A stretch of DNA of 64,000 nucleotides. It comes from Heteronotia binoei (lineage: Eukaryota). This document shows positions 7,787 to 11,394 of this stretch, piece by piece. Position 1 is the stretch's first letter. Every line of letters starts with the position of its first letter. The notes beneath the pieces are model-generated. The model had not been told where the DNA came from. It ran no database searches and was given only the letters and a program-made list of their open reading frames with translations. The position numbers were made by a program, and so were the translations under genes. The stretch is from positions 134,912,001 through 134,976,000 of the forward strand of contig NC_083224.1 in the NCBI RefSeq assembly GCF_032191835.1. Direction: 5' to 3'.

Positions 7787-8060
7787 ATCTGTCTTTCATA
7801 TGTTTACCAGCGGCCTGAACCAGCTGCATGCATTCCCTCACACAGTTTCCACCTTCAAAGTCTGGCTGCAGTGGTTTTGTGGGTACCTGTTCTCCATCCA
7901 AGTAGAGAGCAAAGAAATTGATGTCATAATGCTTAAAGTTAAATGGGTTTTTATTATGGGCCCCACTGAAGGACTCATCCACCAGTCCGATAATCAGCAG
8001 CTTGGGTAATTGCCCCCAAAACAAATTCTCTTGGTTGCTGACACGACTTCCTGCAGGGAT
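7787..8060 (-). pseudogene. Polinton major capsid protein (double jelly-roll, PY) internal fragment
   Basis: IPAGSRVSNQENLFWGQLPKLLIIGLVDESFSGAHNKNPFNFKHYDINFFALYLDGEQVPTKPLQPDF...MQLVQAAGKHMKDR, recognised as Polinton MCP motifs; truncated at both ends. Confidence 0.9.
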
Positions 8061-8061
8061 G

Positions 8062-8519
8062 CAGAGTGTTGAACCTCCCCGTGATGTCTGCTGTAAAGTT
8101 TATATTTTGGATTGCCTCATCTGGGGGTGCCCCTAAAAGGTGAGCCAATTCTTTAGAAGCTGAAAAGGTATAAGTAGGTGGTGCTTTTAGACCGATCTTT
8201 CTATACCATGCTCAGTTTAGGGGGGGAAATGTGACTGTGTGGTGTTCAGTTTCACCACCAGGTCAGGCATGTTTTTATAATAGCCTCTACTGAATCTGTA
8301 TTTCCACTGTTTCTCCTTGGTAATGATTACAATAGTGGAATCTTTGGTGAGGGTCTTCCAGCTGTGAGGATACTGTATTTCCACAAGCCCAACCTCCCAG
8401 GCCCCTGGAAGGTTCAATGACCATGCTAGATGGGTGGTAAAGGCCACTGTAGTGTTCTGTGGAAAAACACTTGCACATGAGTTGCTAGGAAGGGTGATAA
8501 AGAAGCCGCTGTCAGCCAT
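8062..8519 (-). pseudogene. Polinton minor capsid protein (penton, PX), N-terminal part
   Basis: MADSGFFITLPSNSCASVFPQNT...WEVGLVEIQYPHSW is the characteristic Polinton penton N-terminus; continues after a frameshift to TADITGRFNTL; ATG lies 7 nt after the integrase stop. Confidence 0.9.
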
Positions 8520-8525
8520 TTTTTT

Positions 8526-9602
8526 CTATATAGGATCACAGAGTTGAGAAGCAGGAACCCAGATGTTAAATTTATCAGGCCACCCTAACCACTTCACTAG
8601 ATGTTGTTTTCTCTTCCCCCTGCCTTTGGAAGCTAAGATTTTCTCAATTCGATACACTCTGTCTGCTCTACTCTTAACTTTTTGTAGCTCTTCAGGATAG
8701 AATGAGCTTATGACAGGGTCTCCGGCATAATCTTTGCACAAGTACACATTTGATTCTACAAATGACCTGTTCTACTATAAATAATTCATCTGTGAAGCTC
8801 CGTTCATATCCTTTTACAAAAACTCCTTTGCTTTTAGATACATGCACATGATCTCCTTTTCTAATGAAAGGCCCCAACACAGTCTCCGTAAAGCGTTTTC
8901 CACACAGTATGAGCATTGGTGTGGTTTACATCCACAGGACGGGCTCTGATTGTCCTGTGAAAGCTGTGGTTATAACTTTTAATAAGCAGCAGCACGTCAA
9001 TATATCTGAAGGTGTTGTTAGCAGTAAAATACCTCCACATTTTTGTTCTTAATGTTCGATTGAAGCGCTCCACAATAGCTGCTTTGACTTCATTATGGGT
9101 GTAAAAGTGGTGGATTCCATGGTGCTTTAACACGCTGCTTACAGACTGGTTTAGAAACTCTTTACCTGCATCAGTCTGAAGCTTGGCAGATATTCTACCT
9201 TGTTTGAAAATTTCCTTAAGGGCTTTCGACACCCTCTCCCCTATCTTGTCTTTTAAGGCCAAAACCCAGGCATATTTAGAAAATATGACAACCACTGTTA
9301 AAATGTACTTGTAGCCATCATTATTTTTGGAAAATTTCTGCATAACAACAAAATCCACCTGCCACTGGGCATCAAGACCATAAACCATGGTCTTGTTTCT
9401 CTTAAAGCGGATGCGGAGTTGGTTATGCAATGTGTAAGCATCTTGCTCTGAAAGCCAGTTAGTAACATGATTTTGAGTGAGAGCTTTACACTGCTTTTTG
9501 GCTGCCTGGAAGAGAGGCCTCTCCCCGCCAAAGTTCCCTGCTTCTCTGGGAACTATAATACATGTGCTTTAAGATCTCCTCTTCATCAATTGCCCCCATC
9601 AT
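8526..9602 (-). pseudogene. Polinton retroviral-like (rve) integrase with C-terminal chromodomain, frameshifted
   Basis: N-terminal ILKHMYYS..GNFGG..WLSEQDAYTLH; DDE residues in WQVD, LQTDAGKEF and IVERFNRTL; KGDHVHVSKSKGVFVKGYE; chromodomain YRIEKIL...HLVKWLGWPDKFNIWVP; at least 3 frameshifts. Confidence 0.95.
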
Positions 9603-9665
9603 CGCTCACTTAACTCAGAAATGATAACACAAGGTTATAAAACAAATGTTTTTATTGTAACAGAA

Positions 9666-10341
9666 CTACCTCTTCCTCTTATTCATTTTATTCTTCTTTT
9701 TCCTGTCGCACTGGGGAACTTTGGTACAGAAACACGACACACACAATAGATTCACGTCAACAGGGTTACCAATGTGAAGATTACTGAAAGCCTGGATAAA
9801 ATTCTCATCAAGCTGTCAAAATAAAATAAAAAGAACAGCTCAGTGAAAAAGTCCATCACCCTTCTTCATTATACACCCATTCACAAACACTGCTTTACCT
9901 GATTACCTGTGAGTTTGACACAGCGTTCACTTGTTCCATGGATTCATCTAAAACCTCTTCTGGAGTTTCTTCATCATCTTCAAACTGCTCAGCAGGGTCC
10001 CGGTAAATACACCACAGCGGGTTGGCCATTCCCAATTCCATCTCATCTTCAGGGCGGCTGGAAAGTGCCGTCTACACATCATGCTGGCTTTCCCATGCAG
10101 GCATCATTGTGTTTTCTGTTCTGCCATTTACCTTTGGAGTTGCAGAGTGCTTGGGCATTTCCGCAGCCTCATTGGAGACCAGGTAAGTACAGCGCATAGG
10201 GACAACTCTGCTAAAGTACATAGTAGATGCAGAAGGGATGTCAAATACCAGCTGCCTGGCAGGAGCGCCAATGTTGTTGAAACTAGCCCTCCCCAATGGC
10301 GGTGGTGTGGTGAATATCTGGGACCTGTCCAGAGTTTCCAT
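9666..10341 (-). CDS. Putative spliced orphan gene of the Polinton: exon 1 from ATG 10341 to donor 10132 or 9907; exon 2 9812-9666
   Basis: Kozak AACATGG; donors AAG|GTAAAT (10131) and CAG|GTAATC (9906), both phase 0; acceptor ttctttttattttattttgacAG (9813); open exon 2 LDENF...CVSCFCTKVPQCDRKKKNKMNKRKR*; AATAAA at 9656-9651. The long isoform has one in-frame TAG at 10074-10072. Splicing is inferred. Confidence 0.6.
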
Positions 10342-10589
10342 GTTCTCAGCAAGAGCCTGCACACGTGTGTTTAAGCACAAATGGATTATTTCCTAAAATA
10401 ATCTGGTGGGGGTGGTGGGCCTCAGTCCATTTGCTATTGGCCAGGGCATGTTGTTAGAGGGGTCACATGGACCTACTCACGCCTTCTCAGTGGCAGCCCC
10501 ATATTCCAGGGTGGGGTGCCACAGGTGGAAGTTCAATGACGCTGCACTGGGTGACGCTGGAGAAGGGGGCTACACATGTGATTTTCGGC

Positions 10590-10965
10590 CTGCTCAATTA
10601 ATATGCAGGGTTGCTACGTCACAGCGGGGTGGACATAGGTGCTGATTGGCCTGGCTATGCCACATGGTGTGAGTCAGTAAGGTCATTTCCTGGAGGAGCT
10701 GCTTAATTAATTAAATATGCGGGGTAGCTACTTCACAGCAGGGTGGACGTAGACGCTGATTGGCCTGGCTAGGCCACGTGGTGTGAGTTAGTAAAGTCAT
10801 TTCCTGGAGGAGGTGCTTAATTAATTAAATATGCGGGGTAGCTATGTCATGGTGGAGCATAGATGGTGATTGGCAGGGCTAGGTCACGTGGGGGGTGGGG
10901 CTAGACAGGACACCTCCTGGTGGGAGGCGTTTAATTAAATATGAGGGGTGCCTACATCATGGTGG
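10590..10965. repeat. Subterminal tandem array, ~114-bp unit x ~3.3, enhancer/promoter-like
   Basis: Anchor ATATGC/A at 10601, 10715, 10829 and 10939; units carry CCAAT (minus strand), CAC(G/A)TG and TAATTAATTAA. Confidence 0.85.
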
Positions 10966-11031
10966 TGCCCCCAAAGTAGGTCACTTCTGTCCTCCATTTG
11001 CTGTAGTTTCCAGTCACGTGACTCTGGGGTC

Positions 11032-11242
11032 GGGGGAGGGACGGTGACTCAGTGGTAGAGCATCTGATTGGGAAGCAGAAGGTCCCAGGTTCAATCCCTG
11101 GCATCTCCAAAAAAGGGTCCAGGCAAATAGGTGTGAAAAACCTCAGCTTGAGACCCTAGAGAGCCGCTGCCAGTCTGAGAAGACAATACTGACTTTGACC
11201 AAAGGTCTGATTCAGTATAAGGCAGCTTCATATGTTCATATG
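11032..11242 (+). mobile_element. tRNA-derived SINE (Squam2/AnolisSINE2-like) inserted in the Polinton terminal region
   Basis: A-box TGACTCAGTGG, B-box GGTTCAATCCC, body shared with 7123-7318, short (CATATGTT)-like tail. Confidence 0.85.
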
Positions 11243-11394
11243 ACCCTGATGACGCAATTTCTGGTGACGTCACCGGATGTGACGTCACTGGCCACGTCCC
11301 CTTCATTAATTATGCACGGGGTTGACAGTTTCCGGTGACATCACCAGAAGTGACGCCCCTTCATTAATAATGCGTGGGGGGACTATTTACTACT
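11243..11394 (-). promoter_or_regulatory. Polinton terminal (TIR) segment: putative protein-primed origin with CRE/ETS sites
   Basis: TGACGTCA at 11265-11272 and 11280-11287; CCGGATGTGACGTCAC; two related repeats ending CCCCTTCATTAAT(T/A)ATGC; terminal TACTACT. Confidence 0.75.

Follow-up and report, generated by a model that had tools for sequence, protein, structure and literature searches.

Vertebrate Mavericks, proposed as Alphaproteovirus, have a published gene order: integrase (INT), minor capsid protein (mCP), PW, major capsid protein (MCP) and protease (PRO) in one module, PZ, ATPase and protein-primed DNA polymerase B (pPolB) in the other, written INT-mCP-PW-MCP-PRO / PZ-ATPase-pPolB (Barreat and Katzourakis 2021, PMC8097293). 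The same work counts five intact elements in all tetrapods and lists an intact Anolis carolinensis element; 134 intact vertebrate elements are published. Here we analyse one end of a Maverick in the gecko Heteronotia binoei, lying in a 64,000-nt stretch of contig NC_083224.1 (positions 134,912,001 to 134,976,000) that we call the window. Real as it is, the window copy is an ordinary Maverick fossil that adds nothing to known Maverick architecture. What is probably new, if modestly so, is a probable spliced accessory gene beside the terminus, together with a sister family in the same genome that is young and possibly expressed.

The gecko family resembles described systems in most respects. It shares with vertebrate Mavericks the (AGT)2//(ACT)2 ends, a 6-bp target-site duplication (TSD), two converging modules in the same order, accessory regions at both ends, and lengths of 13–16 kb among relatives (PMC8097293). 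With Beta adintoviruses it shares an rve integrase with a C-terminal chromodomain and a hexon/penton module (Starrett et al. 2021, PMC8502044). Unlike the intact elements of PMC8097293, in whose genes that paper saw no introns, the gecko elements have accessory genes that appear spliced. Unlike any intact vertebrate Maverick, the window copy is a one-ended fragment, and it falls outside that paper's definition of intactness (eight unbroken open reading frames (ORFs), two terminal inverted repeats (TIRs) and a TSD). A degraded relic on human chromosome 7, present in placental mammals (PMC8502044), puts out of date the statement in an earlier note on this DNA that such elements are absent from mammals.

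Results

The window fragment is confirmed as the left ~3.6 kb of a Maverick/Polinton, a dead copy in the gecko genome (7786–11394, minus strand; Table 1). The earlier note, which had read it as the end of an inactive endogenous Maverick in a squamate, is borne out: every gene is broken and the far part is lost. The terminus, an orphan gene, INT with chromodomain, penton and MCP all lie on the minus strand, as that note had them, and where it placed an abrupt end inside MCP at ~7787, homology to relatives runs out at 7786. Nothing remains beyond MCP codon ~362, and the window lacks the right two thirds of the element. PRO, PZ, ATPase, pPolB and PW have no match in the window, and the remaining core genes were not found in the 20 kb upstream of it either. 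The next 460 bp past the break are single-copy host DNA; simple deletion is the likeliest cause of the missing right part. A 25-bp tandem duplication occupies 7720–7767, ~20 bp past the break point.

Table 1. Features of the Maverick fragment and its flanks, in window coordinates
Feature	Position	Strand	Basis
Host DNA beyond the break, outside the element	7330..7785		single-copy; self match only in genome
MCP, internal fragment	7786..8062	-	88–92% amino-acid identity to family MCP
Deletion junction, ~1.52–1.54 kb, 1-nt microhomology	8061..8063	-	comparison with relatives
Putative mCP (penton/PX), 5' ~60%	8062..8519	-	tblastn; position as in PMC8097293
INT, rve DDE core and C-terminal chromodomain	8526..9602	-	Pfam; tblastn against an unbroken relative, 81–93% identity
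AATAAA, candidate poly(A) signal, 10 nt past the exon 2 stop	9651..9656	-	sequence
Predicted accessory exon 2: 48 codons, one CxxC, Lys/Arg-rich tail resembling a nuclear localisation signal (NLS), stop	9666..9812	-	
Predicted 94-nt phase-0 GT-AG intron, strong pyrimidine tract	9813..9906	-	conservation in 29 copies
Accessory exon 1, acidic, proline-rich	9907..10341	-	ATG at 10341 inside TIR
Left TIR, up to ~0.9 kb plus SINE	10289..11394	-	right ends of relatives match window
Three 114-bp tandem repeats in TIR	10596..10938	not assigned	TRF period 114
tRNA-derived short interspersed nuclear element (SINE) inside TIR	11033..11240	+	absent from relatives' TIRs; Rfam tRNA 11038–11109, 43 bits
Terminus AGTAGT, (AGT)2 motif	11389..11394	-	same start in relatives (see text); motif in PMC8097293
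GTTATA (element strand), 6 bp outside terminus, putative TSD, partner lost	11395..11400	-	sequence

The fragment belongs to a multi-copy gecko family. Searching the window's own genome, we scored 40 loci out of 448 candidates (a figure that is not a copy number); most are 86–93% identical to the window copy (~88%). Ten relatives were fetched at 20 kb each, four with both TIRs in range. The 16.2-kb copy E shows the full gene order, with INT-mCP-PW-MCP-PRO on one strand, PZ-ATPase-pPolB on the opposite one, and the two modules converging (PM was not looked for). Relatives ~88% identical to the window copy match Pfam DNA_pol_B_2 (E 3e-29), as well as Pox_A32 (E 6e-4) and Peptidase_C5 (E 0.025), the last two under the Pfam cut-offs. 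The pPolB gene is broken in all six relatives in which it was found. Among named proteins, those carrying the labels Heteronotia binoei and Euleptes europaea come closest, and the family MCP shares 81% identity with a protein from Anolis. In a quick tree built from 40 MCPs, the family clusters first with Euleptes (support 98) and next with Anolis, Tiliqua and Elgaria (94); a second gecko clade stands apart. Membership among the Mavericks is established, and the best explanation overall is very probably a vertebrate Maverick family of group I, Beta-adintovirus type, that spread in a gecko ancestor.

The terminus agrees with that of the relatives. Comparison of the AGTAGT end with relatives' termini had been named beforehand as a point on which the reading could fail, and nine of the ten fetched relatives start identically. 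Copies C, E, G and H carry AGTAGT//ACTACT at both ends, C with one substitution, and matching 6-bp duplications flank all four two-ended relatives. A far terminus followed by GTTATA, also predicted earlier, did not turn up: a genome-wide search gave no exact match, and eight one-mismatch matches compare with seven for a control pattern. The right ends of relatives match the window as far as 10289 (E, G), 10344 (C) and 10564 (H), which in the longest cases places the accessory-gene start codon and its first ~17 codons inside the left TIR. The tandem repeats of this TIR carry CCAAT, CACGTG and TTAATTAA, read from the sequence, which we take to be transcription-factor words; we infer from them a candidate promoter or enhancer. 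The SINE inside the TIR, the 1.5-kb deletion described below and the probable second exon of the orphan had all gone unseen earlier. A second, related SINE copy lies at 7129–7299.

Integrase matches Pfam (rve, E 4e-13; chromodomain Chromo, E 6e-9) and has frameshifts near 9555, 8870 and 8748. Frames resembling mCP were found by tblastn at 8525–8059; they carry a frameshift near 8210 and are then cut by the deletion. The putative mCP assignment draws on position and on a language-model atlas lead, with scores of 0.96–0.98 to viral clusters, one of them with 18% Adeno_Penton_B. MCP residues ~264–362 of 438 align by tblastn at 8078–7785, in a different frame from mCP. The family MCP folds as a double jelly-roll: its model (predicted local distance difference test score, pLDDT, 83) matches capsid proteins of that type, best of all the Sputnik MCP 3j26 (E 5e-18, template modelling score 0.65). 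For MCP, mCP, PW and the orphan, Pfam gave no match above cut-offs in the window or in relatives.

The gene order seen in the window results from a deletion private to this copy. Penton adjoins MCP here because the window copy alone lost ~1.5 kb at 8062, which removed the last part of mCP, the whole of PW and the opening ~270 codons of MCP. In six of the ten fetched relatives the two sides of the junction stand 1268–1541 nt apart with PW between them; of the other four, one has its two sides further apart, with an insertion, and in three no downstream piece lies in range. None of the other 39 scored loci crosses the junction, which truncates both genes and leaves them out of frame. The earlier note had proposed that the order terminus-orphan-INT-mCP-MCP defines a lineage, a proposal refuted by the 39 loci and six relatives. 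A real layout of this kind, or a short non-autonomous derivative that spread in this form, would suit the five adjacent, co-oriented parts in the window, and other internally deleted copies bearing both TIRs do exist (5.7 and 6.5 kb); the absent junction, the retained PW and the two genes cut out of frame leave it only the slightest chance. Scarcely more probable is that the host kept the copy as a regulatory element or antiviral endogenous viral element. The TIR with its promoter-like repeats survives, but every gene is broken, divergence from siblings is no lower than among siblings, and no host gene is evident among the window's long ORFs, exons not having been searched for. The private deletion illustrates how a loss confined to one copy can create a false gene order.

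The window copy is inert and yields no working product. Its history since insertion comprises a SINE, point mutations and two deletions. Mean divergence from 11 siblings is 7.5% (5.5% outside CpG sites), against 7.0% between siblings, and paired TIRs of relatives diverge by 9–12%. With an assumed neutral rate of 1–2 per billion sites per year, these divergences give an age of roughly 20–50 million years.

The orphan is probably a two-exon gene with a 94-nt intron. The earlier note was right that a gene is present here and had one exon of it; a second probably lies at 9812–9666. Exon 1 of the window copy contains an in-frame stop at 10072–10074 and is 15 nt under the commonest length. Across 29 copies, the distance from ATG to donor is a multiple of three in 22, mostly 450 nt; the intron begins with GT in 26, ends with AG in 28 and measures 94 nt in 28, and exon 2 is open for at least 42 codons in 23. 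No other donor-acceptor pair of this kind occurs in the 64-kb window, where the pair failed the open-frame filter because of the window copy's in-frame stop. A predicted Gekko kuhli protein of 207 residues (KAL8189897.1, here P0121) contains homologs of both exons joined at the predicted point, with 60/154 identities (39%) in exon 1 and 29/36 (81%) in the better conserved exon 2. The right-end gene of the same family opens with the same TIR-encoded codons as the left gene; by alignment, it has the donor in 20/20 copies, in phase 0 in 16/20. This right-end gene (L022:4550–5534, minus, and L110–L129) apparently has at least two introns and a last exon with CxxC...HxC. Judged from these patterns, host RNA polymerase II (Pol II) likely transcribed the orphan, starting in the TIR with its many repeats, and removal of a single intron would have yielded an acidic protein of ~200 residues with a conserved C-terminal Cys motif and a basic NLS tail.

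Two other accounts of this gene deserve weighing. The orphan could be a single-exon ORF of ~153 codons, its "intron" and "exon 2" being chance features of a 3' untranslated region: 12 copies do read unspliced as complete ORFs of 150–153 codons, and vertebrate Maverick genes are described as intronless (PMC8097293). That ORF, however, ends three codons past the phase-0 donor CAG/GTAATC, and the downstream frame stays open in just 2.4% of shuffles while supplying the best-conserved part of P0121, joined where predicted; we regard the single-exon account as quite improbable. It is also unlikely, though less so, that the spliced gene, instead of being an early regulator of the virus, is host-derived cargo taken up with its intron. 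In nematode Mavericks, cargo with introns lies between left TIR and integrase (Widen et al., 10.1101/2022.07.12.499685), and the two gecko families have different genes in that slot. Nematode cargo consists of recognisable host families such as proteases and kinases (same preprint); for the gecko genes, by contrast, no host homolog was detected, and their start codons lie within the TIR. An exon 1 homolog search returned 0 of 18 candidates, an insensitive search, since P0121 is a 39% homolog; exon 2 matched P0121 alone in word-based searches that are weak for short diverged proteins, and Pfam gave nothing above cut-offs. The TIR start codon, moreover, is common to the right-end gene, and the introns are uniformly short and in phase 0. 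A viral two-exon gene remains the account we prefer.

A second, younger Maverick lineage in the same genome also has an accessory gene with predicted introns. It emerged from the MCP search at ~76% identity. Six sister copies were fetched (L063–L080; contigs C1, C6, C9, C14 and C21), 16.3–17.5 kb long and 98.6–99.9% identical over the left 8 kb. They have AGAAGA//TCTTCT ends, which are not among the three end motifs named in the available part of PMC8097293, ~490-bp TIRs, and 6-bp duplications in 6/6. Seven core genes are uninterrupted in all six copies and pPolB in five, PM not having been checked. The family is young and possibly expressed. Between TIR and INT (L063:3037–4672) lies an accessory gene predicted to have five exons with repeated acidic/Cys modules and four GTAAGT introns of 78–86 nt, all in phase 0. 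It contains one I-x-C-x-E and YEEM words, the latter presumably an SH2-type motif. An atlas search with one exon of this family gave only scores below 0.9. In the sister right accessory region, ~105 nt (L064:5207–5311) resemble a short repeat of the host (82%) and may derive from a captured SINE.

Several lines of evidence bear on splicing of the sister gene. Older copies of this gene type carry one, three or four of the introns; the last intron has its acceptor in 21/21 and a GT donor in 20/21 copies examined. All four predicted junctions are present in the RefSeq model XP_060099311.1 (P0122), and homologs in Eublepharis, Gekko and Sphaerodactylus retain the residues flanking the last one. 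One contig of RNA run X1 lacks precisely intron 2 (depth 3.6, 30-nt side), an intron present in all eight genomic loci that have both flanking motifs. Contigs from X1 cover most of the L063:5701–10000 core region at ~99% identity; 24–25 of 38 listed differences are common to four other genomic copies and the rest match none of the five, so the contigs could be transcripts, DNA carry-over or an unassembled variant. Runs X2 and X3 contained no predicted junction, with only 12% and 5% of words present. Annotations in four gecko genera treat the sister accessory gene as an uncharacterized host gene, and Maverick genes are probably what several RefSeq "uncharacterized" host genes of geckos represent.

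The sister gene apparently is unrelated to the window's gene and occupies the same slot, supporting the principle of spliced accessory genes and not the window's specific intron. Homology between window exon 2 and the sister Cys modules, plausible by eye, was considered and set aside: the best exon pair was equalled in 28/2000 shuffles among five tests, and with a sister profile, window exon 2 fell outside the 8 best of 1610 frames.

Some observations weigh against our account of the spliced orphan and its parent. The 29 copies share one ancestor and amount to about one observation. P0121 is a prediction flagged UNVERIFIED_CONTAM and could come from an intronless or non-Maverick gene. The sister splice is seen in one contig, other X1 contigs retain introns 1, 3 and 4, DNA carry-over in the RNA library is possible, and all three RNA runs come from one study; nor is the sister gene demonstrably homologous to the window's. 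The mCP assignment is putative, a single-sequence model of the sister-family mCP having a pLDDT of 33. The function of the orphan is a guess because LxCxE, CR1 and PxDLS motifs are absent.

Other features of the window

Beyond the Maverick, the window holds a long interspersed nuclear element (LINE), which we take to be RTE-like, with an 895-codon open reverse-transcriptase frame (60776–63463, minus) and a truncated copy ~95% identical to it (15703–17463, minus); the LINE family looks recently active. A 5S rRNA match of 99.7 bits and a diverged partial copy 0.8 kb off (58160–58278, 59020–59101) represent either a dispersed 5S gene or a 5S-derived SINE. Near-perfect long inverted repeats at 43931–44219, 40471–40966, 39893–40028 and 26451–26535, with arms of 41–151 nt at 94–100% identity, are probably elements resembling miniature inverted-repeat transposable elements.

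Discussion

The gecko Mavericks can be placed in a simple scheme. Maverick replication, packaging and integration are established for the family: the parent of the window copy would have used a protein-primed PolB to copy its linear DNA, jelly-roll capsids to package it and the rve integrase to insert it. Host Pol II would transcribe from the repeat-rich TIR, and the spliceosome would process the accessory genes. The left accessory product may act as a regulator in the nucleus; it looks acidic and largely disordered, and carries one short conserved Cys motif. By analogy of position and build, not of sequence, with adenovirus E1A, we tentatively suggest, at somewhat less than even confidence, an early nuclear regulator of viral or host transcription. 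More doubtful still is an adenovirus-like early programme in gecko Mavericks, with Pol II promoters in both TIRs, spliced virus-specific regulators at each end that are swapped between lineages, and a young sister family that is still expressed. Were it true, vertebrate Maverick transcription would be open to study in a living lizard.

Spliced accessory genes have consequences for annotation. Annotation from ORFs only misses spliced genes, and the accessory regions of vertebrate Mavericks may therefore be mis-described. With several young uninterrupted copies in one gecko, and RNA contigs as well, tissue RNA that already exists would allow a direct test of expression. In the literature searched, which lacked most subscription papers, Repbase reports and supplements, nothing described spliced accessory genes for vertebrate Mavericks. 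The available part of PMC10748475 has nothing on them, the main text of PMC8502044 is silent on splicing, and the annotated element maps in PMC8502044 and PMC8097293 may be relevant here.

Adenovirus E1A is the first gene inside the left inverted repeat, is spliced and acidic, and has a basic C-terminal tail. The gecko accessory gene is like E1A in place and build, an analogy only; unlike E1A, it has no Rb- or CtBP-binding motif, and it has no sequence or Pfam match to it. Both the family protein and P0121 lack LxCxE, CR1 and PxDLS and have one CxxC and 3–5 CK2-type sites; given the absent motifs and no Pfam match above cut-off, we do not class the orphan as an Oncoid or E1A homolog. Oncoids, as defined by Starrett et al. 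(PMC8502044), are likewise small acidic accessory proteins with CK2-type sites and CxxC, characterised by LxCxE and/or CR1 beside CK2 sites and by paired CxxC; the gecko protein differs in having no LxCxE or CR1 and a single CxxC. Oncoids also typically lie upstream of PolB, the gecko gene upstream of INT (PMC8502044). If the predicted introns are genuine, splicing would link Mavericks, like the related adenoviruses, to transcription by Pol II in the nucleus.

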